This document shows positions 976 to 52,156 of a stretch of DNA of 64,000 nucleotides, one piece after another. Every line of letters begins with the position of its first letter. The first letter of the stretch is position 1. Origin of the DNA: a virus (Duplodnaviria > Heunggongvirae > Uroviricota > Caudoviricetes); IMG/VR virus record IMGVR_UViG_3300037261_000110, one strand, 5' to 3'. Below the pieces are notes generated by a model that saw only the letters and a program-made list of their open reading frames with translations, was not told where the DNA came from and did no database searches. A program made the translations under genes and the position numbers.

Positions 976-3879
976 CTATCTTAGCGGTCTACCGCGAAAA
1001 ATAGCCGTCATGATTGTAGGCTCCTCGAAGCCACGAGCGGCGATCTCCTTTTGAATTTGCTCAAGCCCGCCGATAAGGTTGCGAACTGGCGGTAATCCAA
1101 TATAATTTCGACCAGCCACTATACTTTTCGGTAAGGTACCGTCCTTTGGATTTGGCAAGGTACCTGCCTGAGAATCTGACAAGGTACCTGCTCCCTCAGA
1201 ATCTTTACGGTCCTCAGTCAGCTCTTGAAGCTTCGCCTCAACTTCCTTCCTCGCCTTTTCATTGTAGTTGCGAGAGCCAGCATAGCCGACGCCAGTCAGA
1301 CGCTTAGTACCGTACTTACGCTTCGGACGCGCCCAAGCGAGATATTGCGAAGTCGAGTCGCCCTGATCCTTGTACTTGGTCTCAGGCCAACCAAATATCT
1401 CAGCTTCATATTCTGCTAGCCACCCTGAATTCTCAGGTAGATGGACCAGATGCGCTTCCATCATTGGCGTCACACCATCCATGCGAAACTCTTTCGTAGC
1501 GTTATCAGTTGAGATAGCGATAACTGCACGCGGGCAATGTGGCGAGTTTGGATCGGATTGCTGCTGAATGTACTGAGTACCAGAACCCTTGTCTTCGACG
1601 AGAACACAATCCACATCTCTCAGCTCAGCAAGCTTGTTGAGCTTGTTTGCCATCTCAAAGAACTCCACACGCTTGCGGTAGACCTCGATCAAGTAGTGAT
1701 GGTTATCTTTAGTTTCATCCCAAATCGTTGCAACCGTATAAGCTGCACGCTCGTTGTTCTTGTTGGCAGTGTCGACTGACATAACACGACGCTTCACGTC
1801 TTTGCGCTCAGGACCGATGCGATAGCGTGTACTTGTGAACCATTCACGCTTGATGACGCCACCTTGCTCGTCGATCGGCTTGCCCATATACAAGCTGTTC
1901 CAATCCTTTGCGGATTGCTCAGACTTGATCTGCGCGAGAACATCTTTCGAAAAGAACTCAGGCCAAAGCGGATCACCAAACTGGCGTCCGATTGGATCGG
2001 GAACTGAATCGTCCAAGTAAATTGCCGGCAGGTTAATGATTTCCCAAGGGGCTCCATCGACCATACCTGCCTTGATCATCTTGTTTTCGGCCTCTAGGCG
2101 TCCGCAAAGATCGTCCGAATGCCAGCGCGTCGCCACTATGAACAGTGGAGCTTTGGGAAGCAGACGCGTAAGGTAGTCAGCCTTGAACCAAGCATAGGTT
2201 TTATTGCGGATCGTATCGGATTCCGCATCCTCTCTCGACGCAAATGGATCATCGACGCCAGCAAGATTAGTTCTGAAACCTGCAATTCCTTGTCCGACAC
2301 CACGTGTCAGATAAGCAGAGCCGTTATTTAGCACCCAATATCCGGCGGCGCGCGAAGCTGTGCTTAGCTGTATGTTCGGAAACACTTCAGCATAGCGATC
2401 AGACTCAATTATATCTCTGCACTTCTTACCAAATTCGTTCTCGACGAAGTTCTGGCTGTGTCCGGCTTGAAGATATTTCGTCTTTGGAGCAACACCCATC
2501 TTCCAGGTTGGAAATAAGCGCGAGGCATACGTCGAATTATGGGTTACAATATGTCCACGACCAACAAGAAACAAACCATCTTCGCGTTCGACAGTAATGC
2601 ATTGAGTCGATTGAGTTCCTTCAATCTTCTCGAACGAAATGTAACGTCCGTATTTACCTTCAAACTCAGTTGCACGACAGACCTTGCGCCATAGCTGAAA
2701 CGCACTCTTGAAGTAGAAAGACACGCGCCAATATTCACCGCAGTCTTTTCCGTTCAACATAGCACGTCCAGGGATGATTGAATTCTTCACCCCTAACGAA
2801 AACAGAAGTTCACTCACTGCGTCCCTCAAGCGAGAATTGGTTGAACAAAACGAACACTGTCCTGACGGCGAGACCGTTCCATCACTATCCATCAATCCTT
2901 GTAGAATTGATAAACGCACGTGATAAGAATTTCGAAGATACAGCTCAGGAACATGCTTATTGTTCAAGACACCAAGTGATACCAGATGCTTTCTAATGCC
3001 TAACAAACCAAATGCAGTCTTAGTTGTATGATCAGAAGTATGAACTCCGCACCATTCAATGCGCTCACGTACTTCCGGCTGATCCTTCACATCACATGTT
3101 ATTGTCGGTTGATCGGAATGCCCGTCGCCTAACCAATATCCAAGAACATAAGGATCAAGCGGAATCGTACGAGCCTTATATTCGACTGCTTCAAAATTTG
3201 GAAGTTTTGCACGGCGAGGAGATGTTCGATTGGCAAGATATTCAGTTGGATATGTCTTCCAATAATCACGCTTGCGATCTAATCGAACTGTCCACAAATG
3301 TTCCCCATCAACTAAAACAGCTTGTCCATCATCAGTGTATACACGATAGATTGTACGATTTTCAAACACCGGCGATTTTGCGATTATCTTAGTTGTTGTG
3401 CCGTCTGGTCCGTAAACCTTGTCACCGACTTTCAACTCAGCAATCGTTTTGTAACCGAGCGGAGTTGGAACCTTAGTATCCAGCACCATCGCTTTTGCAT
3501 GTCCTGGTGGCGCCGATATCATTAGACGCGAGTGCATTCCCTGTGACAAATCTGTCAGCTTATTCAGCATGAAGACATGCCAATCAGCCGGTGGTTCATC
3601 CGGAAAAATGTATTCACAATATGCAGTTAGGTCTTTTGGCGCGAGCTGAAGCAGAGCGCTCATGTACTCATTCGAAGTGCTTTCGTAAAGCTCTTCAAGT
3701 GCAATCAGCTGTTGCGCGGGATCGGTAGTACCTGTAAGTTCTATTATGAACTTAGTCTTTGTCGGCGTCAACATCGACTGACGTATCAGTGATGTTTCCA
3801 GCTCCGTCGCCACCATCTTCAGGTTCGTCAGTGACTTCCGTATCTGCTTGCGCGTCTTTTGCGAGATTATTTGCAGCAT
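976..3879 (-). CDS. terL: Terminase large subunit (TerL) interrupted by an in-frame intein. The extein N-terminus may start at the internal Met at 3816 or 3774
   Basis: Motifs: ATRWHSDDLCGRL, DGAPWEIINLP, FIVATRWH. A P-loop-like PPGHAK|S is split by about 319 aa that begin with a Hint block A and end in HN+S. Confidence 0.9.
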   Translation of the reverse strand: MLQIISQKTRKQIRKSLTNLKMVATELETSLIRQSMLTPTKTKFIIELTGTTDPAQQLIALEELYESTSNEYMSALLQLAPKDLTAYCEYIFPDEPPADWHVFMLNKLTDLSQGMHSRLMISAPPGHAKAMVLDTKVPTPLGYKTIAELKVGDKVYGPDGTTTKIIAKSPVFENRTIYRVYTDDGQAVLVDGEHLWTVRLDRKRDYWKTYPTEYLANRTSPRRAKLPNFEAVEYKARTIPLDPYVLGYWLGDGHSDQPTITCDVKDQPEVRERIEWCGVHTSDHTTKTAFGLLGIRKHLVSLGVLNNKHVPELYLRNSYHVRLSILQGLMDSDGTVSPSGQCSFCSTNSRLRDAVSELLFSLGVKNSIIPGRAMLNGKDCGEYWRVSFYFKSAFQLWRKVCRATEFEGKYGRYISFEKIEGTQSTQCITVEREDGLFLVGRGHIVTHNSTYASRLFPTWKMGVAPKTKYLQAGHSQNFVENEFGKKCRDIIESDRYAEVFPNIQLSTASRAAGYWVLNNGSAYLTRGVGQGIAGFRTNLAGVDDPFASREDAESDTIRNKTYAWFKADYLTRLLPKAPLFIVATRWHSDDLCGRLEAENKMIKAGMVDGAPWEIINLPAIYLDDSVPDPIGRQFGDPLWPEFFSKDVLAQIKSEQSAKDWNSLYMGKPIDEQGGVIKREWFTSTRYRIGPERKDVKRRVMSVDTANKNNERAAYTVATIWDETKDNHHYLIEVYRKRVEFFEMANKLNKLAELRDVDCVLVEDKGSGTQYIQQQSDPNSPHCPRAVIAISTDNATKEFRMDGVTPMMEAHLVHLPENSGWLAEYEAEIFGWPETKYKDQGDSTSQYLAWARPKRKYGTKRLTGVGYAGSRNYNEKARKEVEAKLQELTEDRKDSEGAGTLSDSQAGTLPNPKDGTLPKSIVAGRNYIGLPPVRNLIGGLEQIQKEIAARGFEEPTIMTAIFRGRPLR
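2536..3492 (-). mobile_element. Intein with a LAGLIDADG homing endonuclease domain, inserted in the TerL P-loop
   Basis: N-terminal block A-like (A)MVLDTKVPTPLGYKTIAELKVGDKV. Two LAGLIDADG motifs, LGYWLGDGH and LQGLMDSDG. C-terminus GHIVTHN followed by the +1 Ser. Confidence 0.8.
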
Positions 3880-22968: not shown

Positions 22969-23005
22969 GCAGGAGCTTGCCAAGAAGCTCAAACGCGCTT
23001 ATACA

Positions 23006-23326
23006 GTGTCCATGACCGAACTCAAAGACTCTGGCTTCTGGATCGAAAAGCCTATATGGGCTGCTGACCGTCCGAAGAAGTTTTACACTTACTTCGTGGT
23101 TGGCAGGGGCATCTTTCCGCTCGACATGCTGCGTGAGCAACAGGCGTGGCCTGCGTCGAAGTCGGATGTCGTCGCGCTTGACAGCGTTGCCTACAAGTCC
23201 GATCGTACGGTTCAGCTTTGTTCCTATGCCGAGCCGTCGCGGCAGCGGTGGCTGTCGGCTGGCTGGCCTTGCACTTCACAACTAAAGGAGAAGACAAGTG
23301 GCGCCAAGAACGAAAGAACCGCCTAA
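23006..23326 (+). CDS. Hypothetical protein
   Basis: 106-aa ORF. Confidence 0.45.
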   Translation: MSMTELKDSGFWIEKPIWAADRPKKFYTYFVVGRGIFPLDMLREQQAWPASKSDVVALDSVAYKSDRTVQLCSYAEPSRQRWLSAGWPCTSQLKEKTSGAKNERTA

Positions 23327-23504
23327 GCCGATCCTGGCTGTCAAGTTCGACTTTTATGAGAGCCTGGACGCTTTTATTCAGTCGGGTATGAATCTCCTTC
23401 AAGCGGCTGAGTTCACGCTTGCGCACGGTGATCTAAAATCGCCGGTTCATGACAATCTCAAGGAGCAGGCTGACAAGTTTCGCGCGCTGCTATCGAGCGT
23501 ATAA
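23298..23504 (+). CDS. Hypothetical protein
   Basis: 68-aa ORF. Confidence 0.4.
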   Translation: MAPRTKEPPKPILAVKFDFYESLDAFIQSGMNLLQAAEFTLAHGDLKSPVHDNLKEQADKFRALLSSV

Positions 23505-23994
23505 AGGGAGACAAAGGTGGTCAACATTGAAAGCTCTCCGCCACGCGATCACGCGTGATCCGGAAACCGGTAAGTCACCCGTGATACCAGGGTTAGGGTT
23601 CAACATGTGCGACTTTGGCGCGCGGGTCGGGCATGACGACCGCTATTATCCGATCAAGGACCATCTCGACGCTTGTGGTACGGTCGCTTGCCTGGGAGGC
23701 TGGTGCTACGCCATACTGCATCCCGAGCTGGCTGACGATCAAGGAGTGATTCTTGTTCCTAGCTGTAGAGCCTACGATGGGGCAGGGCGCAAGGTTCTCC
23801 AAGAGGCAGGAGATTGGTTAGGTTTAACCAGGGAGGAAGCGCACTGGCTTTTCCAGTTCGATATGGATACAAGCAGCCAGTCACTATCGAAAGTCCCGCT
23901 TGAGAGAGCGTTGGCGGTTCTGGATCGCATAATCGAAACGGGCGAAATCATCAGAAGCTGTTGGAAAGACGCGCAGCTGGTGCTCGCCGGTTAA
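23449..23994 (+). CDS. Hypothetical Cys-containing protein; the true start is probably the internal TTG near 23528
   Basis: CGTVACLGGWCY motif; start is uncertain. Confidence 0.4.
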   Translation: MTISRSRLTSFARCYRAYKGRQRWSTLKALRHAITRDPETGKSPVIPGLGFNMCDFGARVGHDDRYYPIKDHLDACGTVACLGGWCYAILHPELADDQGVILVPSCRAYDGAGRKVLQEAGDWLGLTREEAHWLFQFDMDTSSQSLSKVPLERALAVLDRIIETGEIIRSCWKDAQLVLAG

Positions 23995-24373
23995 CTATAG
24001 CAATACATTCGGGTTGCTATTTTTCTGAGTTGGCGTACATTTCAAGCAACGAAAGGAGCCAAAGAAATGTGCAACGCATACGAGTTGATCCCTGGTCGCA
24101 ATCCCGACTCGATCTGGTGGCGGGATTGGAACGATGCGCCGGCTGAGATACCGCCGCGAGCGCAGAAGACCGCGAAGACGCGCGAGCGTGAGCGGGAGAT
24201 CACCATCCTCAACCGGGATTGGCAGCGGTCATGAGCCCGTTCGAAGAAGCTCTCGACGATCTGATCAACAAGTATCTCGGCGACATGGACGAAATCATCT
24301 CGGTCTTGGAGCTGAAGGTGATGGCGCTCAAGGAAGAGCAAAGACATGCCAATGACGGCGATCGGGAGGGCGC

Positions 24374-24835
24374 ATGAAATCGATCGGCGCTTCCAGCATG
24401 CTTGACCGGGCTATCAGCTCTTTACGAAAAACGTATGAAGGCAGAGTTTTTGCCTTCACCGTCGTTACCAATCAACAACAGCACCCGCAGTTTGCGCCCG
24501 CTGTAGCGATCCTGGGCGAGCCCGGTTATACCTGTCTATCTACCAAGCTGTATGGCGCCCATGACGACTACAAGGTCATGGCAGCGCTCGTGGACGGCGC
24601 CAACGCCAAGCTTGGCTATACGTCCGACACGGCTTTAGCAATCGTCGCCGACACCATGCATCGTTCGAACTGGAAGGCGGACCAGGAGGCGGGCATAACG
24701 TCGGTGAAAATGAGCAAAGAAGAGCTGATAGCTCTGAAGGAAGTGCTCGACGCCGCCGACAACTACGGTTCGTTGGGCATCCTCAAGCGTTATCACGAGC
24801 GGATCGACGACGCAATTGAAAGCTACGCTCTATGA
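24374..24835 (+). CDS. Hypothetical protein
   Basis: 153-aa ORF. Confidence 0.5.
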   Translation: MKSIGASSMLDRAISSLRKTYEGRVFAFTVVTNQQQHPQFAPAVAILGEPGYTCLSTKLYGAHDDYKVMAALVDGANAKLGYTSDTALAIVADTMHRSNWKADQEAGITSVKMSKEELIALKEVLDAADNYGSLGILKRYHERIDDAIESYAL

Positions 24836-25455
24836 GTGGTGATCGAAAGTTTCCGCTGGTAGGTATCAGGCGAGGCGATGACGGTCACAGTAAGGCCGCG
24901 CAAGTCTCTTGCTCGCGATGCCCCAGGAAAGGCTACATGCCGATGACCGGCAAAATGGCTCCGCCGGAAGTCGTACGGAAAAAGTTCATCGACCTTGGTT
25001 GGTGGATTGGCACACGTCATGAGAAGGGCGACGTTTGCCCTGATTGCGTCAAACTCGAAAGGTCTAACAACATGCTTTCCACTAAGAAAATAGGCGTGCC
25101 CGCGCTCGCCGCCGTGCCGCCGCGCACGATGACGCGCGAAATTCGGCGATTGATCTTCATGAAGCTCAACGAGATTTATTTGAGCGAAGAGGCGGGGTAT
25201 GGTAAGGGCTGGACCGACAAGCGCGTCGCCGAAGATATGGACTATCCCGCCGCGTGGATTGTGACCGTCCGCGAGGAGAATTTTGGTCCGCTGCGTGACA
25301 ACGAAGACCTGCGTGCGCTCCGCGAGGATATGGCGAAGCTCGAACGCGACCGGGTGGTGCTCGACGATTCCGTCAAGGCGATCGTCGCAAACCAAACGAA
25401 GCTCAACGCGCGGATTGACGATCTGCTGCGCCGGGCGAAGGAGATTGCGGCGTGA
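24832..25455 (+). CDS. Zn-ribbon-containing protein with a C-terminal coiled coil
   Basis: CSRCPRKG ... CPDC; stop overlaps the start of the downstream nucleotidyltransferase gene. Confidence 0.55.
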   Translation: MSGDRKFPLVGIRRGDDGHSKAAQVSCSRCPRKGYMPMTGKMAPPEVVRKKFIDLGWWIGTRHEKGDVCPDCVKLERSNNMLSTKKIGVPALAAVPPRTMTREIRRLIFMKLNEIYLSEEAGYGKGWTDKRVAEDMDYPAAWIVTVREENFGPLRDNEDLRALREDMAKLERDRVVLDDSVKAIVANQTKLNARIDDLLRRAKEIAA

Positions 25456-26066
25456 AAATCGACAAAGAGATCGCCGGCTACCCGATGAAACCGGTTAGGA
25501 ACTTCCTCAAGTGGATGGCTCTCCGCCAAAATGGAGTGCTCCTGGAAGATGCCAAAGTCGAAGCCAAAGCTCATGGAGTTGCGGTATCACGACTGATGTC
25601 TGCCGGACTGGTTACAAAAGAAAAGCACTTATATCATGCAACCGATCTTGGCATCCGCATCGCTCGTACCCTTTTAATTAAACGATTCAATCGAGCCACG
25701 GCAACACGGCTGATACGGGAGCTACTTGATCGGGCCGAGCAAATCAACGCTGATCCTAAGCTGGCGCATTTTATCAAGGAAATTCGTTTGTTCGGGAGCG
25801 TGCTCAATAATTCGACTGCCGATGACTATGGTGACATTGATTTGGCACTTATCCTAGAGCGTAAAACAAACTGGAAGGAAATTCTTAAAGCGGAATACGG
25901 TCGTCGGATTACCTGGACCGTCGATGACTATATACATGACCGTAAAAAAGTTCAAAGCCTTTTGAAAAATCGCGATGGACGCTTCTCATTTACCGATCCG
26001 GAAAATTTGAAAGATATTTTTACGAACAACGTGCAGCTCTATCCAGTTTGTGAGATTGAGTTGTGA
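25452..26066 (+). CDS. Winged-HTH plus Pol-beta-superfamily nucleotidyltransferase domain protein
   Basis: NTase signature FGSVLNNSTADDYGDIDLALIL (GS...DxD); N-terminal wHTH-like RQNGVLLEDAKVEAKAHGVAVSRLMSAGLV. Confidence 0.6.
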   Translation: MKIDKEIAGYPMKPVRNFLKWMALRQNGVLLEDAKVEAKAHGVAVSRLMSAGLVTKEKHLYHATDLGIRIARTLLIKRFNRATATRLIRELLDRAEQINADPKLAHFIKEIRLFGSVLNNSTADDYGDIDLALILERKTNWKEILKAEYGRRITWTVDDYIHDRKKVQSLLKNRDGRFSFTDPENLKDIFTNNVQLYPVCEIEL

Positions 26067-26293
26067 GTGACACCTTCACCCTGATCGTGGACGTGAAGCA
26101 GCGGCGTCCAGGCTGCGCTTTGATCCAGGCTGTCGGCGGTGACACCATGCTCCTCAAGCAGCTGTTCGACGCAGAGAGCTGGCTTGTAGCGCCGACGCCG
26201 GATATGTACAGTGTGACCGGCACGTTGGAACAATGGGAGGACTTCGCGGCCGAGTGCCGGCAGCGCTTCCCGCTGCCGAGGTTAAAGCCATGA
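26063..26293 (+). CDS. Hypothetical protein
   Basis: GTG/ATG overlap; 76 aa. Confidence 0.4.
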   Translation: MSDTFTLIVDVKQRRPGCALIQAVGGDTMLLKQLFDAESWLVAPTPDMYSVTGTLEQWEDFAAECRQRFPLPRLKP

Positions 26294-26490
26294 GAATCGA
26301 TATCCATGTTGTTGAGGATACTGATCGTCACACTCGGCAGGCGCTTGCCGATGCGCAGGAAGCCATGTTGGTGGACGACTACAGCAAGGCTCTCGCCATG
26401 TTGCGGATCGCGCTGGCGTGGGCTGATGTAGAACGCCCGTCTGCCCGGACCTATATCATGTGGATGATAGACGGTACGCGGCCTCCATGA
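26290..26490 (+). CDS. Hypothetical protein
   Basis: ATGA overlap with the upstream stop. Confidence 0.4.
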   Translation: MRIDIHVVEDTDRHTRQALADAQEAMLVDDYSKALAMLRIALAWADVERPSARTYIMWMIDGTRPP

Positions 26491-26535
26491 GCTTTTTTAC
26501 TTGACAACACCAAGAAAATATGGAACATAGAAAAA

Positions 26536-26781
26536 ATGGCACAAGTTCCGAAAAATCAATCTGGCGTCCCTCTCAAGTGGAAGGACCATTTTCCGCTAGG
26601 CTTCATCACGAAGCCAGCTGGCGGCGCCGGACAAGGCTACAAGTCGAAGCGCACCTTGCTCTACGATCGCATGGGCAACCTTCTTGGCGAGTTCGATAGC
26701 CGCGTCGCGGCGGAAGCCGAAGCCGAACGTTACCGCAAGGACCCTGATTTGCTTGCAACGAAAGGAGGGAAGACAAAATGA
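26536..26781 (+). CDS. Hypothetical protein
   Basis: 81-aa ORF. Confidence 0.45.
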   Translation: MAQVPKNQSGVPLKWKDHFPLGFITKPAGGAGQGYKSKRTLLYDRMGNLLGEFDSRVAAEAEAERYRKDPDLLATKGGKTK

Positions 26782-27044
26782 GTCGCCGTCAAGATGCCAT
26801 AGCCCACGCCCTGAAGACAGCTAGCATTCAGACAGGTGCTTTCGGTCGTGTGAAAGCGCTTAGTAATGCCCTTGTCCTGAAGTCACGAATGCCGGAGCGC
26901 TATCGAGATGACGCTGAGCAGCTTGTCGGGCTGCTGAGCGAGTTCGAGGATCGTCCTGGCTCTTACATGCTCTCGGCGCACGCCGATCTGCACAAGAAGT
27001 CCCGGCAACTGTTTCAGCGCTTACTGAGGACGGAGCATCCATGA
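26778..27044 (+). CDS. Hypothetical protein
   Basis: Start/stop overlap. Confidence 0.45.
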   Translation: MSRRQDAIAHALKTASIQTGAFGRVKALSNALVLKSRMPERYRDDAEQLVGLLSEFEDRPGSYMLSAHADLHKKSRQLFQRLLRTEHP

Positions 27045-27259
27045 AGATGTCCGATGTGCGCGTTGGAATGCGCCTACGCAGCACTCTCGGCAATAGTCCA
27101 TTTACGCCGATAACCGTAACCGCGCTTACTGAGCGCGGCTTCGAATATCGGTTCGACGAGCCGGTGGCGCTCGTGCCACGTTTAGGCATCATCTATCCGA
27201 CCGAAGGGCACGAGCACTTCGGCCTGGACGGCGAGGCGTTCTATGAAGTTTTGGAATGA
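27041..27259 (+). CDS. Hypothetical protein
   Basis: Start/stop overlap. Confidence 0.45.
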   Translation: MKMSDVRVGMRLRSTLGNSPFTPITVTALTERGFEYRFDEPVALVPRLGIIYPTEGHEHFGLDGEAFYEVLE

Positions 27260-27265
27260 ACTGAT

Positions 27266-27415
27266 ATGGACACCAGATATGCGGATGCGATAGTAGTCTT
27301 CGAAGAGGCGGTATCAAGCGCATGCGAGAAGGCTAATCGGGCAGGCGTCACCGATAAAGAGCTTGTGGAAGAACTGCGACGCCTTGCGAGTGCTCTTGAG
27401 AAGGAACTAAAATGA
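27266..27415 (+). CDS. Small hypothetical protein (49 aa)
   Basis: ATGA coupling with the downstream gene. Confidence 0.35.
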   Translation: MDTRYADAIVVFEEAVSSACEKANRAGVTDKELVEELRRLASALEKELK

Positions 27416-27591
27416 ACACCTATGACGCATTCTTGAATTGGGCGGTCAAGGAAATCCCGGTCGACGACATGGGTGCTCTTCGCGGTGCCTGTCAGGCAGC
27501 TGCCTTTATTTTCCGAAGGAATCCTGGACAGGTCCAGAACGACGTGCGCGAGCGCCGTGCTCGTCTTTTGTCGGGTGTCCATGCCAGCTGA
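27412..27591 (+). CDS. Small hypothetical protein (59 aa)
   Basis: ATGA overlap with the upstream stop. Confidence 0.35.
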   Translation: MNTYDAFLNWAVKEIPVDDMGALRGACQAAAFIFRRNPGQVQNDVRERRARLLSGVHAS

Positions 27592-27596
27592 GTGTC

Positions 27597-28052
27597 ATGA
27601 CCAAGCGAAAACGAAAACAAACTCGACAACCTGAAAAAGAAGAGAGAATAAAGATCGCGTTCGACAAGGACGATCCGGTCGACCGTTTTCTTTATACGCT
27701 TCGTCGACCGTATCCACGCATGATTTGCAGTATTTTTCTTAACGGCGGCTGTTTCGAACTGTACAGAATTTTGAAAGAACGCTGGCCTAATGCGATTTGT
27801 TATTATGCATCGGTCGAATCTCACATCTATACCAAGATCGGGCTGAAATACTACGATATTCGCGGTGCATATTCCGAGCTGAATCGCGACGCGCATATTG
27901 CCTTGTCAGAAACCATCGAAAAAGCAAAGAAGTGGCGCGAAGGCTTAACGGTCGGTTGGCTCGTCGACTGCATGTACAAAGACCTGGGAGTTGGAGAAGA
28001 CAAAGCCCATGACCCTAGAGAATTCGATTCCGATCATGAGCTTGACTTCTAA
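27597..28052 (+). CDS. Hypothetical protein with a basic N-terminus
   Basis: 151 aa from the internal ATG. Confidence 0.5.
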   Translation: MTKRKRKQTRQPEKEERIKIAFDKDDPVDRFLYTLRRPYPRMICSIFLNGGCFELYRILKERWPNAICYYASVESHIYTKIGLKYYDIRGAYSELNRDAHIALSETIEKAKKWREGLTVGWLVDCMYKDLGVGEDKAHDPREFDSDHELDF

Positions 28053-48413: not shown

Positions 48414-50678
48414 ATGAAAATAGAGACCGCCGAGAGAGTAGCCGAGTTTGCTGGTTTTCTTGAAGAGAAAAGCTTCACGATAGCAGCAAACGGTAAAGCT
48501 TTTCGGGTCCTCATTGATAAACTTTACTCAAACGTTCATCAAGCTATTGTACGCGAGCTGATGACGAATGCTTGGGATGCGCATGTTTCGGCGGCAAATC
48601 TAAAACCTTTCGAAATTCACGTGCCGACAGCGTTTGAGCCCTTCTTTTCTATTCGTGACTTCGGCTGTGCAATGACTCACTCAGAAGTCATGAACGTCTA
48701 CTCGACGATATTCGAGTCAACCAAGGATGCTCGTGACGATCAGGTCGGCGCCTGGGGCCTTGGCTCAAAAACACCTTTCGCCTACACTGACACTTTTGGC
48801 GTGCAAGTCTGGCTAGATGACCGCCATAGGGTGTATAATGTCTTCATAGATGCGACCGGTGTCCCAAAAATCGCCCTGGCGCTCGACGAAGAGAATGACG
48901 GTGCCGCGAACGGCGTTGAGGTATCCTTTCCAGTCGGTGTCAAAGATGCCGGTCTTTTTCGAACCGCGCTCGAAGTGGTTAGCATTGGCTTCGAAGTCAA
49001 GCCAAAATTTTCTGGTTCGCTCAATGTTCTGGAATTAGAGAAGCGTCGTCAAGGTGCTGGCTGGTTCACGTTCGTCTATTCCAGTGGACCAACATGGTTG
49101 AAAAAGCCGGTTGCTCGGGTCGGCTGCGTCCTCTATCCGATCAAGCTGGACGTGGTGTGTGATCTCATAAGAGACAAAGCGACGAAGCCAGAGTGCTGGC
49201 AGCTTTTGTCCAGCGTGCATGGTTTTCCGGGCACGCCAATGATCCTCGATTTCCCAATTAGCTCGATCGAAGTCACAGCCAATCGTGAAGACTTATACTA
49301 TTCGGAACGAACTGTCAAGTCTATTGTTGATAGATTCGAGACAATCGTTCAGGAAATGAAAGCTGAGTTTTTAGCTAATATCAAGAAAGGCAAGACTCTC
49401 TATGAAGTGAATATGGAAGTCCTCGAAGTCTGCGAGATGTTCGCCGACGTTGCCTCTGGCGTCTCTAGCTATCTCCGTGATTTTGCTCGGCAACAGAGCT
49501 TCAAAGGACGAAAGCTTCTTCACAAAATCGTTTTTCGACATAGATACAAAACGGTTGAGGAAAAGAACGCTGCCGGTGAGGCAGTCATTTATCGAGTTCC
49601 GACTCGTTACAATAGCATTCAATTCGTCTACTATCTAGGCTCGAAATTCATTCGTCAACCAGGACTGCAATTCTGTGATTCTGAGGAAATGTCTTGGACT
49701 CCGCGTGTTACCGACTTCTTCGTTGAGCTGCCGGGCGAAAAGGGTAAGCGCGTGCCGTACGCTGCTCGCCGCATTCGTCACGAGCGCAACGAAGCCGGCA
49801 CGACCGTGCGCCACGATCTTATGTGGATCAAGACACCCTCACTCTCGGACCCTCACTTCGTAAAAATGTGGATCGGGCTCGGGCGCCCGCCTTATAAACT
49901 GGTCAACGATCTGGTGAGACCGCCGGGCATTCCGACCGAGCGCTATATAACCCCGATGCGCATTTATAATTCGAATGCAGATACGTGGGAAAGGTATGAC
50001 GATTTCGACGTTGAGAATGACGCCGGGTTTTATGTGATGCTCAACTGCGGGCTTCCGGAGCATATAAAGAGCGTGAAGCTCTGCGATCTGATCGGATTTC
50101 TGGAATCAAAGCGCGCGATCCACAATGCCCGTCATATCATTGGCATCCCAAAGAGCCGCAAGTCAGTTCTCTCAAAATCCGATCAATGGATTGACATGGT
50201 TCCCGTCCTTAAAGCAGCCTACCGCAAAGCGCTCAACGTGAAGCAGGCAGCGGTCAGTTTCAGTGTTAAAGAGATCACAATCGACAAAGGGGATCAAGGC
50301 ACGTTAGAAAGATTGAACCGCAAGCTTGGTAGGTTTGATCCGGCGTCGCCGTTCGTTCAAGCGATTAAAGCCTATGATCGGTTGGGAGCGATTGAGGCGA
50401 CAGCTGCCGAATTTAAGAGTGCCTGGAATCATCGATGGGTGCTTGATTATGAGGAGCGTGCGAAGCTCGACGAAGAATACAACGCGCTCGCCAAAAGTGA
50501 CCCGGCGCTGGTTTCTGAGATTGGCTCTATCAAGTCTGCCATCGAAGGTGTTTTTCAAGCCTATCCTTTACTGCAAAAAGTGCCATATCCCGATCAAGAT
50601 GCTTTGAAAGCACTCGACGACTATATTGTAGCGATGGACTGTTTTAGAGGGGCGCTTGCTAGTGGCTTACAAAAATAA
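48414..50678 (+). CDS. rIIA: rIIA-like protein (GHKL ATPase-domain protein)
   Basis: FRVLIDKLYSNVHQAIVRELMTNAWDAH matches the T4 rIIA N-terminus (VVRELITNMIDAH); also GAWGLGSKTPF. Confidence 0.8.
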   Translation: MKIETAERVAEFAGFLEEKSFTIAANGKAFRVLIDKLYSNVHQAIVRELMTNAWDAHVSAANLKPFEIHVPTAFEPFFSIRDFGCAMTHSEVMNVYSTIFESTKDARDDQVGAWGLGSKTPFAYTDTFGVQVWLDDRHRVYNVFIDATGVPKIALALDEENDGAANGVEVSFPVGVKDAGLFRTALEVVSIGFEVKPKFSGSLNVLELEKRRQGAGWFTFVYSSGPTWLKKPVARVGCVLYPIKLDVVCDLIRDKATKPECWQLLSSVHGFPGTPMILDFPISSIEVTANREDLYYSERTVKSIVDRFETIVQEMKAEFLANIKKGKTLYEVNMEVLEVCEMFADVASGVSSYLRDFARQQSFKGRKLLHKIVFRHRYKTVEEKNAAGEAVIYRVPTRYNSIQFVYYLGSKFIRQPGLQFCDSEEMSWTPRVTDFFVELPGEKGKRVPYAARRIRHERNEAGTTVRHDLMWIKTPSLSDPHFVKMWIGLGRPPYKLVNDLVRPPGIPTERYITPMRIYNSNADTWERYDDFDVENDAGFYVMLNCGLPEHIKSVKLCDLIGFLESKRAIHNARHIIGIPKSRKSVLSKSDQWIDMVPVLKAAYRKALNVKQAAVSFSVKEITIDKGDQGTLERLNRKLGRFDPASPFVQAIKAYDRLGAIEATAAEFKSAWNHRWVLDYEERAKLDEEYNALAKSDPALVSEIGSIKSAIEGVFQAYPLLQKVPYPDQDALKALDDYIVAMDCFRGALASGLQK

Positions 50679-51147
50679 AGATGATGACAAAAAATGGAGA
50701 GAAGCTAACGAGGATCATCTAAAGCAATATAAAAGAGACTACTACAGACGGAAGTATGGAAAAAATCGTGAAAAAATGTGTCCTAAACCTAAAAGACGCA
50801 CAGATCACTTGAAGAGATACGGTATCACTATAAATGAGTGGGAGAAGATGTTTGAAAAACAGGGTAAAATATGTGCTCTGTGTGGATCAGATGTCCCTGC
50901 CAAACACTCAAATCGATGGAATACGGATCATGATCACGATACAGGGATAATTAGAGGAATTATTTGTTGCAGTTGTAACAATGGATTAGGTCTATTCAAG
51001 GATGATCCAGTGCTACTGCGCAAGGCCGCCAACTATATAGAACTAAGCAAACCTCTTAATTTTTTACTTGACAATCGGAAAAAACCCGAGCATTATGCCG
51101 AAACTCAAACCATAGAGACGGACAGCAATGAGCACGATCCCGCATAG
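50656..51147 (+). CDS. Endonuclease VII-family nuclease, copy 3, inserted between rIIA and rIIB
   Basis: CALCGSD...TDHDHDTGIIRGIICCSCNNGLGLF; AT-rich codon usage. Confidence 0.75.
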   Translation: MLVAYKNKDDDKKWREANEDHLKQYKRDYYRRKYGKNREKMCPKPKRRTDHLKRYGITINEWEKMFEKQGKICALCGSDVPAKHSNRWNTDHDHDTGIIRGIICCSCNNGLGLFKDDPVLLRKAANYIELSKPLNFLLDNRKKPEHYAETQTIETDSNEHDPA

Positions 51148-52156
51148 CATTACCGCCAATTCGATCTCGGTTCTGATCGATTATCGGATGCGCGTCATTC
51201 CGAAGTCGTCTGTGAACTTCGATGCAATTCGAGCCGAACTCGGCAAGGGCGAGAAGGCGGATATCGGCAAGCTCAAGTCGCTGGTTGACATTCCATCGTT
51301 CATCGCTCGGGTCACGGCTGGACGTATTCGCGTCTCCGACGACGAAGTGTATTTCAAGTCGGAAAAAGTCAACAGCTACGCGGCTCAGCGTCTTTTGGAG
51401 CACCTGAGAGACGGTGATTCGATCGAACCGCTTGCCAAGCTGCTCGACAAGCTGATGGACAATCCGAACCCGGCACTCCGCAACGATCTGTGGCTGTGGA
51501 TCGAACAAGCCAATCTGCCGATTGCCGGTGACGGTGATATCTTGGCCTTCAAAAAGGTCGATCCGGAATATAAGTCGTTCCACAAGAACACCGATGGCAC
51601 GTACCACGTTCATCGTGTCGGAACACGCGTTCACATGCCACGTGAGCATTGTGACCCGAACCGTCATTCGGTTTGTTCGACCGGGCTGCACTTCTGTTCA
51701 TATGGCTATCTGCACACGTATGAAGGAACCAGCGGGCACGTCGTTATCGTGAAAATCAACCCACGTGACATTACCGCGATTCCGTCTGACGCCTCCGATC
51801 AAAAGGGACGCTGCTGTCTCTATGAAGTGGTCCAGGAAATCGACCAGGAGGAAGCTAAGCAGTTTTTCAGGGGTAACGTCGTCTCGCACGTCGGCACTTA
51901 TGACGAGCCAGAGCCCGACGAACCGCCGGTGGATTGGGACGATCATGAAGGCGGCTACGAGATCGGCGAGGGAGCTGCCGAGCCAGAGGCTGTGGTCAAT
52001 GCCAGTGATGACGGATTCACGATCGTCATCGGCAGCAAGCGCGTCAGCCGCCAGCACCTGAATGATACCGTCGCCAGTCTCGGACAGCGCGGCGCCGCCA
52101 AGAAGCTCGGCATACCACGCACGTCGCTTCAGGACGCACTCAAGCGCATGAAGTGA
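51128..52156 (+). CDS. rIIB: rIIB-like protein with a C-terminal HTH
   Basis: CSTGLHFCSYGY ... VVIVKINPRDITAIPSD ... CCLYEVVQE matches the T4 rIIB core. Confidence 0.75.
   Translation: MSTIPHSITANSISVLIDYRMRVIPKSSVNFDAIRAELGKGEKADIGKLKSLVDIPSFIARVTAGRIRVSDDEVYFKSEKVNSYAAQRLLEHLRDGDSIEPLAKLLDKLMDNPNPALRNDLWLWIEQANLPIAGDGDILAFKKVDPEYKSFHKNTDGTYHVHRVGTRVHMPREHCDPNRHSVCSTGLHFCSYGYLHTYEGTSGHVVIVKINPRDITAIPSDASDQKGRCCLYEVVQEIDQEEAKQFFRGNVVSHVGTYDEPEPDEPPVDWDDHEGGYEIGEGAAEPEAVVNASDDGFTIVIGSKRVSRQHLNDTVASLGQRGAAKKLGIPRTSLQDALKRMK

Follow-up and report, generated by a model that had tools for sequence, protein, structure and literature searches.

Overlapping stop and start codons raise the question of whether two neighbouring phage genes make up a functional pair or simply follow one another. 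The question was posed by a 64,000-nucleotide stretch of viral DNA (the window), in which a gene for a zinc-ribbon/coiled-coil protein runs into a second gene whose product joins a winged helix-turn-helix (wHTH) to a minimal nucleotidyltransferase domain (NTase, or MNT). The original prediction had described the two genes as translationally coupled and, with no HEPN gene in sight, had suggested a possible distinct phage-side arrangement.

Location and features of the two genes

The window belongs to a large lytic phage, with genes for terminase, primase, rIIA/rIIB, DNA polymerase I and helicase, and the NTase and zinc-ribbon genes lie within its early or accessory gene array. Both open reading frames proved to be real, and the overlap of the GTG start with the upstream stop was confirmed in the sequence (Table 1). 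GTG is well supported as the true start of the NTase gene, because a perfect Shine-Dalgarno sequence occurs 8 nt before it and because the predicted N-terminus (MKIDKEIAGYP...VRNFLK) aligns with that of the protein family (MxxDxxxxIAGxP...VRDFLR). The NTase gene was identical in all recovered variants of the phage, and the identical protein was encoded on 21 metagenomic contigs. A consensus scan of the plus strand between 23439 and 27267 returned no promoter-like or terminator-like sites; such a stretch is consistent with a single long transcription unit, though it is not evidence for one.

Table 1. Positions of the genes, translation signals and predicted domains at the locus (window coordinates).
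Feature	Position	Strand	Details and basis
Zinc-ribbon/helical/coiled-coil gene, judged not to be a partner	24832..25455	+	207 aa, ATG start; phrog_21667 match, homologue alignment, AF2 model
Shine-Dalgarno AAGGAG	25438..25443	+	read from sequence; within 3' end of upstream gene
Start/stop overlap GTGA of zinc-ribbon and NTase genes	25452..25455	+	4 nt; sequence
Winged-helix/minimal-NTase gene	25452..26066	+	204 aa, GTG start; ORF list and sequence
IAGxP..VRxFL motif and winged helix-turn-helix	25470..25676	+	residues 7-75, N-terminal
Basic linker helix	25677..25751	+	residues 76-100; near-invariant R81, A84, R94, N99; conservation over ~227 family sequences
Minimal NTase domain	25752..26042	+	residues 101-197; FGS 25791-25799, D128-x-D130 25833-25841

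Domain architecture of the nucleotidyltransferase

Motifs, family alignment and AF2 model agreed on a Pol-beta NTase signature fused to an N-terminal winged helix, in keeping with the original prediction. The motif GSVLNNSTADDYGDIDLALIL was present, with F114-G115-S116 and D128-I-D130 following the pattern hG[GS] and then [DE]h[DE] 9–13 residues on, while the Pfam model NTP_transf_2 (PF01909) scored 21.5 bits and thereby just passed its cut-off of 21. The alpha-beta-alpha-beta-alpha-beta arrangement of the minimal NTase fold could be traced in the 204-aa protein. In the AF2 model (pLDDT 88.8) the linker formed a helix (residues 81–100), and only short elements extended beyond the NTase core, as far as residue 197. 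Judged from its sequence, the phage protein is a winged helix fused to a Pol-beta-superfamily MNT with intact catalytic motifs, and it is probably enzymatically active.

No residue could be assigned as the canonical third catalytic carboxylate, which this superfamily carries on its third strand. The strand at residues 178–181 reads FSFT, against a family consensus of [LI]S[LF]H, and the next residue, D182, is not conserved. At two positions the phage copy departs from residues that are moderately conserved among its relatives: E166, found in 74% of the family, is K166 here, and H181 is T181; just 8 of 205 family members share the loss of both. Since both residues are replaced, the activity of the phage enzyme may be altered or weakened. 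The motif GWTDKRVAEDL may resemble GcrA, though the Pfam search produced no GcrA match at E ≤ 1.

The wHTH-MNT family and its genomic settings

Relatives of the phage NTase comprised 783 clusters (E ≤ 1e-3) of proteins of about 210 aa, constituting a large, unnamed family whose members carry the JGI label 'predicted nucleotidyltransferase'. Matches were collinear and full-length (approximately residues 1–200 of 204), with E-values down to 2e-15; the phage protein was about 30% identical to the family, and 33–38% identical to its best relatives. Six residues were invariant in approximately 227 family sequences (R16, F114, G115, S116, D128 and D130) and seven others nearly so (R81, R94, N99, G150, K172, R174 and S179), and all were retained in the phage copy. 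It therefore displays the family hallmarks throughout its length, that is, the IAGxP..VRDFLR region, R81/A84/R94/N99, FGS, DxD, SG[RK], LKxR and S179. NTP_transf_2 was matched by 14 of 40 family members at E ≤ 0.01. With a mean net charge of -1.4 among family members, the recognition helix and wing are on average not basic, which weakens the case for a generic DNA-binding role. Longer relatives were considered as 'Rosetta stone' fusions and found uninformative; their C-terminal extensions lacked Pfam matches and one protein was a tandem duplication of the module.

No relatives of the NTase were found among 50,697 deposited phage genomes and PHROGs, and IMG/VR contained no close relatives of either the NTase or the zinc-ribbon protein. 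A literature search did not recover any description of a stand-alone winged-helix-MNT family. On these comparisons, the phage NTase appears as a lone, divergent member of that family.

The genomic setting of the family was assessed at 32 non-redundant loci other than the phage, retrieved with a degenerate DNA pattern for FGSY-TD-x4-GD-D, a pattern that favours one subclade and so biases the sample. Across these loci there was no conserved neighbour, large or small, and no conserved upstream gene, and HEPN was absent from the families listed for the neighbouring genes. The phage locus was similar: as had been noted, no HEPN partner was visible, and the Pfam matches on record for the 55 genes called up to 10 kb to either side of the NTase include no HEPN. 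Its immediate neighbours had no significant Pfam match, the single weak one having an E-value of 0.53. The absence of HEPN is not specific to the phage, therefore, since the family loci are likewise HEPN-less and without a conserved neighbour. The suggestion of a distinct phage-side arrangement was not upheld; by this comparison, the partner-less, HEPN-less state is the norm for the family on bacterial chromosomes and plasmids.

Family genes occurred in variable regions of bacterial genomes, some of them near defence genes. The neighbours included integrases, transposases, a type I restriction enzyme, GmrSD, AIPR, IetA/IetS, AbiU, PbeA and PDC-S01, an association with defence islands that is qualitative only. 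The family was also present on 17 plasmid records, 11 of which were conjugative.

Relationship to known systems and probable function

A minimal NTase is usually taken to be the antitoxin of a HEPN/MNT pair. Foldseek comparison of the NTase model with the PDB identified MNT antitoxins from such pairs as its nearest structural relatives (2rff, 8xeh chain E, HI0073 1no5 and 6m6u), with no full-length match at E ≤ 1e-3. In contrast to these antitoxins, the phage NTase begins with a winged helix, followed by the conserved basic linker helix, and has a helical insertion bearing the SG[RK] and LKxR motifs; an adjoining HEPN gene is missing both here and at the 32 family loci. The NCBIfam MntA model (NF047752) gave 14.3 bits (E = 0.029) for the phage protein against an equivalog cut-off of 60 bits, and was matched, weakly, by 5 of 40 family members.

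AbiEi/AbiEii and MenA/MenT likewise bring together a regulator containing a winged helix and an NTase of the Pol-beta type; as here, they are borne by mobile elements and, as is probable here, they are concerned with genetic conflict. They consist of two separate proteins, with a DUF1814-type NTase of about 280 aa, whereas here there is one chain of 204 aa with an MNT-like core. Neither the phage NTase nor 40 relatives produced an AbiEii/MenT (DUF1814) profile match in Pfam or PADLOC; one family member showed a weak match to AbiEi (E = 0.0045). PDC-S09 is a single-gene putative defence candidate in PADLOC, as yet unvalidated, with an NTase embedded in defence islands (PMC12988326). Its models were matched by 28 of 40 family members (best E = 4e-7), but they are about 100 aa long, lack the winged helix and cover only residues 103–144 of the phage NTase (E = 1.6e-3). 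This weak match was the only one that PADLOC returned for the phage protein; there was none to CBASS. CD-NTases, HalB and CloB have an adjoining effector, whereas none is conserved here; for HalB and CloB the comparison is one of gene context. An assignment to housekeeping or antibiotic NTases, named at the outset as the finding that would count against the prediction, did not emerge: no match of the ANT/KNTase/Lnu type was obtained in Pfam or NCBIfam, the C-terminal helical substrate-binding domain of those enzymes is missing from the phage model, and AAD(9) aligned with it over the core alone.

The preferred reading, given a probability of roughly 0.55, is that the gene encodes a catalytically competent wHTH-MNT, the lone divergent phage copy of a partner-free, mobile, single-gene family, and that the zinc-ribbon gene is a mere neighbour. 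Most likely, the NTase is a single-gene mobile-element enzyme that nucleotidylylates a macromolecule in the course of host-element conflict. NTP-Mg2+ would be bound by the GS loop and D128/D130, and the winged helix would grip the target together with a set of conserved basic residues (R16, R81, R94, R/K151, K172 and R174). NMP would then pass to a hydroxyl of the macromolecule, either on a protein side chain (like MntA) or at a nucleic-acid 3' end (like MenT/AbiEii), and the phage may deploy the enzyme against a component of the host or of a competing element during infection. The phage NTase is an uncharacterised accessory enzyme and not a new system. Its comparison delimits a large branch without a name, comprising several hundred clusters or more, in which the MNT stands alone and shares its chain with a winged helix; the branch travels on plasmids and genomic islands and has entered a lytic phage at least once. 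If the target were found, a single-gene nucleotidylylation module would join the repertoire of defence or counter-defence, and for such work the phage copy, isolated by nature, would offer a convenient starting point.

MntA neutralises HepT via polyadenylylation (PMC7641770), and the phage protein could be an orphan counter-defence factor of this kind that AMPylates and silences host HEPN RNases (HepT-type toxins or other HEPN nucleases), that is, an antitoxin acting in trans. The structural proximity to MNT antitoxins and the weak MntA and PDC-S09 matches are consistent with such a role, as is the position of the gene, without a cognate HEPN, in the early/accessory array of a lytic phage. This explanation is nonetheless considered unlikely. 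Bacterial and plasmid relatives are HEPN-less too, which indicates that the family did not evolve as the antitoxin of an adjoining toxin; the NCBIfam MntA model falls well short of its threshold; and the winged helix, the linker helix and the conserved C-terminal motifs are left unexplained.

It is similarly doubtful that the protein is a toxin-type NTase serving exclusion or abortive infection, a fused equivalent of AbiEi and AbiEii/MenT that, once triggered, would modify tRNA or some other RNA by nucleotidylylation and that the phage would turn on competing phages or use to shut off the host. The parallel in domain logic with AbiE, the one AbiEi match and the occurrence of a single-gene family in variable regions beside known or candidate defence genes all point in this direction. 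A broader proposal, that wHTH-MNTs represent a new HEPN-independent class of single-protein conflict enzymes and that the phage copy serves counter-defence, through nucleotidylylation of an effector (e.g., a HEPN RNase) or a fake Hailong/Clover signal, is tentative and improbable. The notion that the phage NTase makes a short oligo- or dinucleotide, like HalB (Hailong) or CloB (Clover), and so fakes an inhibitory immune signal is very unlikely: small Pol-beta-superfamily NTases with just the [DE]h[DE] core do make inhibitory signals in those systems (PMC12265719) and the phage enzyme is an orphan, but HalB and CloB always adjoin their effector, the wHTH-MNT family has no conserved neighbour, and PDC-S09 alone was matched in PADLOC.

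The zinc-ribbon gene and the meaning of the overlap

The upstream protein has the zinc-ribbon and coiled-coil character originally ascribed to it. Its N-terminal domain contains a Cys4-type zinc-binding arrangement, C27-x2-C30...C69-P-x-C72, in which C27, C30 and C69 were invariant and position 72 was Cys or His in an alignment of about 6–7 homologues; a conserved helical domain (residues 102–150) and a long C-terminal coiled-coil helix of 50 residues (157–206) follow (AF2 pLDDT 80.6). The protein matched phrog_21667 over residues 15–206 (E = 1.2e-36), a family with no assigned function. Homologues were identified in Sinorhizobium phage phi3LM21 (p23) and Microcystis phage Mae-JY30, while the C-terminal half was also found in Caulobacter phiCbK-like phages. 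Elsewhere these relatives adjoin CcrM-like or MT-A70 methyltransferases and replication genes, in contrast to the NTase neighbour seen here.

A coupled two-gene module, in which the zinc-ribbon protein regulates or neutralises the NTase in the manner of a toxin-antitoxin pair, would account for the GTGA overlap and for the NTase ribosome-binding site lying inside the upstream gene. The genes also adjoin in every recovered variant of this one phage; no variant without the NTase was found, and every contig with the zinc-ribbon gene also had it. A Bradyrhizobium subclade of the NTase family has an upstream Cys-containing ORF, though this is unrelated in sequence to the phage zinc-ribbon protein. 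Such a module is highly improbable, being largely refuted by the comparative data. Four-nucleotide overlaps are the default in the surrounding array (17 of 52 junctions), and both genes overlap their outer neighbours also, the zinc-ribbon gene through ATGA at 24832–24835 and the NTase gene through GTGA at 26063–26066, such that the 'coupling' is a chain rather than a pair. Each family occurs without the other: the zinc-ribbon family is NTase-free in phi3LM21, Mae-JY30 and the contig L048, and no zinc-ribbon relative was found near any of the 32 other NTase-family loci. The zinc-ribbon protein was thus rejected as a partner, and the initial idea of coupling, when judged by these comparisons, does not hold; the gene is interpreted as an unrelated neighbour, the next in a tightly packed array.

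Base composition also sets the NTase gene apart. The NTase gene has a GC content of 45.9% and a GC3 of 48%, compared with 55–62% and 61–79%, respectively, among its immediate neighbours, and 67–79% GC3 in the three overlapping genes. A recent horizontal gain of the NTase gene is only weakly supported by its low GC. GC content varies along the entire window (mean 51.6%, SD 3.6), so that the NTase gene deviates by only z = -1.6, and the gene for terminase is just as rich in AT.

The nucleotidyltransferase family

The 204-aa NTase barely passed the Pfam threshold for NTP_transf_2 (21.5 bits against 21), and the Polbeta and winged-helix models matched below threshold. PADLOC returned weak PDC-S09 matches alone (residues 103–144), NCBIfam MntA scored 14.3 bits against a cut-off of 60, and PHROGs gave no match. 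HMMER, run exhaustively over 1.84 billion representatives, recovered 783 relatives at E<=1e-3 (48 at E<=1e-10), many of them full-length proteins of about 205–230 aa; the top identity was 48%, for a partial match only, and full-length matches shared 30–38%. An alignment of 40 sequences showed a collinear architecture: an N-terminal IAGxP...VRDFLR motif, a winged helix, a basic helix (KRIxRAKA...R....N), FGS...GDIDL, and then SG[RK] and E.V..LK.R.P..S.H in the C-terminal part. When profiled against the PDB, the family matched the winged helices of AspA and MarR (E 2e-4 to 2e-3), and Pol lambda at E about 0.3–0.9 only. The Pfam, alignment and PDB results together upheld the original prediction of a winged helix fused to a minimal nucleotidyltransferase (MNT). 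The NTase is a true, if divergent, member of a winged-helix-MNT family that has no name. None of the Pfam, NCBIfam or PHROG models spans the full length of this family, and no description of it was found in the searchable literature. Where its members are named at all, sources use 'predicted nucleotidyltransferase', 'hypothetical protein' and, once, 'predicted transcriptional regulator'.

R16, F114, G115, S116, D128 and D130 are invariant in the family, and the phage protein keeps all strongly conserved residues (~227 sequences). Its NTP-Mg2+ binding motif is intact and sits on an MNT fold, and the family has a conserved Arg/Lys set outside the nucleotide site. The enzyme looks catalytically competent from its motifs. 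No position could be assigned to the canonical third carboxylate. Two moderately conserved residues are replaced, E166 by Lys (codon 25947–25949) and H181 by Thr (codon 25992–25994); E166 and H181 are found in about 75% of the family and are both absent in just 8 of 205 members, so that K166 and T181 may give the phage enzyme an activity or specificity differing from the family norm. Size variants were also seen: P0012 is a family protein in which the whole module is duplicated in tandem, its second copy reading GDIEI; three others (P0023, P0073 and P0083; 526–548 aa) have a C-terminal extension of ~320 aa with no Pfam match, and a Sinorhizobium plasmid carries a long form of 577 aa.

Genomic context of the family

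Family loci were collected by look-ups of three family proteins and by a degenerate FGSY-TD-x4-GD-D DNA pattern, which gave 27 loci in 185,579 species genomes and 2 in IMG/VR; nearly all encoded a family member. The 55 called genes within ±10 kb of the phage NTase included none with a HEPN hit on record, as had been noted, and its immediate neighbours had no significant Pfam hit (one weak match, E 0.53). Across 32 non-redundant loci, no neighbour family recurred beyond near-identical or same-genus loci (BLASTP, phmmer), nor did any small ORF of at least 30 aa within 700 bp. The lack of a HEPN gene is thus the family norm, and not the distinct phage-side arrangement that had been proposed. The exception was a Bradyrhizobium/alphaproteobacterial subclade of four loci (L022, L028, L030 and L033), which share a related upstream ORF showing no sequence relationship to the phage zinc-ribbon protein. 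The ORF in L030 has 4 nt in common with the NTase start and had no relative in the PDB; that in L028 bears a CPLCG...HRC motif.

Among 118 neighbours scanned with Pfam and PADLOC, the top 25 families per scan included three phage-type integrases, two transposases, KfrA, DUF6527 (twice), ThiF, a type I restriction enzyme, GmrSD (type IV restriction), AIPR, IetA/IetS, AbiU, PbeA, PDC-S01, HEC-05 and PDC-M16A, with no HEPN among them. The neighbourhood is mixed, leaning clearly towards mobile elements and defence; this is a qualitative statement, since it concerns the top 25 families per scan without a background control. With tblastn, members turned up on 17 plasmid records, of which 11 are conjugative and all annotate the gene as 'hypothetical protein'; none occurred in 50,697 deposited phage genomes. 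The absence of a recurring neighbour and the plasmid and mobile-gene setting mark the family as a stand-alone, mobile-element-associated gene. On an Arthrobacter plasmid the gene lies a few kb from a relaxase, and on a Curtobacterium plasmid it adjoins a coupling protein.

Predicted activity

The NTase is predicted to work like an MNT. It would add NMP to a hydroxyl of a macromolecular target, which would be held with the help of the winged helix and basic linker, and the phage would use the enzyme for host take-over, counter-defence or inter-element competition; this reading was given a probability of about 0.55. RNA 3'-end nucleotidylylation by MenT/AbiEii-type toxins provides one of the two best-understood precedents among small NTases of this fold. 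Protein poly-AMPylation by MntA is the other (PMC7641770), and a third comes from HalB and CloB, which make inhibitory nucleotide signals (PMC12265719). With a mean net charge of -1.4 across the family, the recognition helix and wing are on average not basic, and therefore protein binding or dimerisation is as likely a role for the winged helix as DNA binding.

Two alternatives, an enzyme directed against HEPN proteins and a toxin or exclusion factor, are unlikely, to a similar degree. Production of a signal, after HalB and CloB, is very improbable. The NTase falls outside MntA, as it lacks a HEPN gene and scores below threshold, and outside AbiEii/MenT, having neither a profile match to these proteins nor a separate antitoxin. 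It belongs neither to the CD-NTases nor to the antibiotic NTases, whose C-terminal domain it lacks, and is similar at most in its core to PDC-S09, itself an unvalidated candidate (PMC12988326).

The gene array and the zinc-ribbon protein

The two overlapping ORFs originally described were recovered in the ORF list and the sequence. They belong to a chain of four (see table), in which every junction is a 4-nt ATGA or GTGA overlap, rather than forming a specially coupled pair.

Coordinates of features in the window and at compared loci (L-numbers)
Feature	Sequence	Coordinates	Strand	Source
153-aa ORF, first of overlapping chain	window	24374–24835	+	ORF list
Zinc-ribbon protein ORF, 207 aa, ATG start	window	24832–25455	+	ORF list
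NTase ORF, 204 aa, GTG start	window	25452–26066	+	ORF list
76-aa ORF downstream of NTase	window	26063–26293	+	ORF list
Zinc-ribbon family: conserved central helical block (GWTDKRVAEDL..P.AWV) in the window; relatives in L011 and L048	window	25135–25281		
	L011	3992–4666		
	L048	534–1217		
Subclade upstream ORF	L022	4140–4637	same as NTase	
	L028	7298–7933	same as NTase	
	L030	2182–3039	same as NTase	
	L033	512–811	same as NTase	
Large terminase, 967 aa, unusually long	window	976–3879	-	
rIIA-like (754 aa) and rIIB-like (342 aa) genes	window	48414–52156		

The chain is part of an extended array of small + strand genes; of the 52 same-strand junctions in the 20.6 kb surrounding the NTase, 26 show some overlap, which is a 4-nt one in 17 cases. 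Translational coupling is therefore the default of the array and uninformative on function. A consensus scan of the + strand from ~23.4 to 27.3 kb found no promoter-like or terminator-like site. A perfect AAGGAG (25438–25443) precedes the GTG of the NTase ORF with an 8-nt spacer, and homology confirms this start: in the 40-sequence alignment, the N-terminal MKIDKEIAGYPMKPVRNFLK lines up with the conserved beginning of the family proteins. In public gene calls the zinc-ribbon gene begins at 24937 (172 aa), which would drop its first CxxC (C27/C30). Since homology begins at residues 5–15 and takes in that CxxC, the longer reading, whose ATG overlaps the preceding stop, is correct. In the metagenomic variant L003 (3537–3971), the small genes at 26063–26490 (76 and 66 aa) are merged into one 144-aa call and upstream genes differ too, the NTase protein being identical; this indicates micro-variation in the array.

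The full-length zinc-ribbon protein matched phrog_21667 (E 1.2e-36). Sinorhizobium phage phi3LM21, Microcystis phage Mae-JY30 and Rhizobium phages encode homologues, and Caulobacter phiCbK-like phages have a counterpart of the C-terminal half. C27, C30 and C69 do not vary, and position 72 holds either Cys or His; the most conserved part is a central block (PPREM..EDRR.IF.K...Y.....Y..GWTDKRVAEDL..P.AWV..VRE.NFG). Relatives elsewhere lie in early or replication regions: in phi3LM21 between a CcrM-like methyltransferase and a replication initiator with NusG, in L048 immediately before an MT-A70 methyltransferase, and in Mae-JY30 after an ATP-binding protein. In temperate alphaproteobacterial phages the family adjoins CcrM-like/MT-A70 methyltransferase, replication-initiator and NusG genes. 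The GWTDKRVAEDL..P.AWV motif may resemble that of GcrA; Pfam gave no GcrA hit at E<=1. The family is a candidate methylation-linked DNA-binding regulator, offered here as a lead.

That this protein and the NTase form a functional module, as first proposed, is highly doubtful. Every recovered variant has their genes side by side, and all these variants represent one phage population. No ORF near any other NTase family member resembled the zinc-ribbon protein, even at E<=1, and genes adjoining the phi3LM21 relative had no NTase Pfam hit at E<=0.1; each family thus occurs elsewhere without the other, and the pair is best taken as a chance adjacency in one lineage. The NTase is left as a real, probably active and unusual accessory enzyme, without the two-gene system.

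Base composition and the phage

The NTase gene has 45.9% GC (GC3 48%), compared with 55–62% (GC3 61–79%) in its neighbours; GC varies considerably along the window, so that the gene has a z of -1.6 on the window scale. This composition is compatible with acquisition from elsewhere, as weak evidence. The protein is roughly equidistant from all sampled relatives (24–43% identity by BLASTP, ~30–32% near full length), among which no donor lineage could be named. A YunG-like gene at 27600–28052 (phrog_4814; Pfam Phage_YunG-like on the public call) has 45.9% GC and GC3 49%, and the similar dips suggest several compositionally foreign inserts in the array.

The window is part of a large lytic phage, encoding a large terminase, primase-like protein, rIIA, rIIB, helicase and DNA polymerase I, with no tRNA genes found; the same NTase gene occurs on contigs up to 152,899 bp. 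The phage has no close cultured relative; no deposited phage was similar at the DNA level to region 23000–28000, and the AT-rich terminase (~44–46% GC) had best protein matches of ~30% identity (Gordonia phages), its C-terminal part sharing 50% with Microcystis phage Mwe-JY26. The lowest GC of the window (40%) was observed at ~50400–50700, at the 3' end of rIIA ahead of rIIB.
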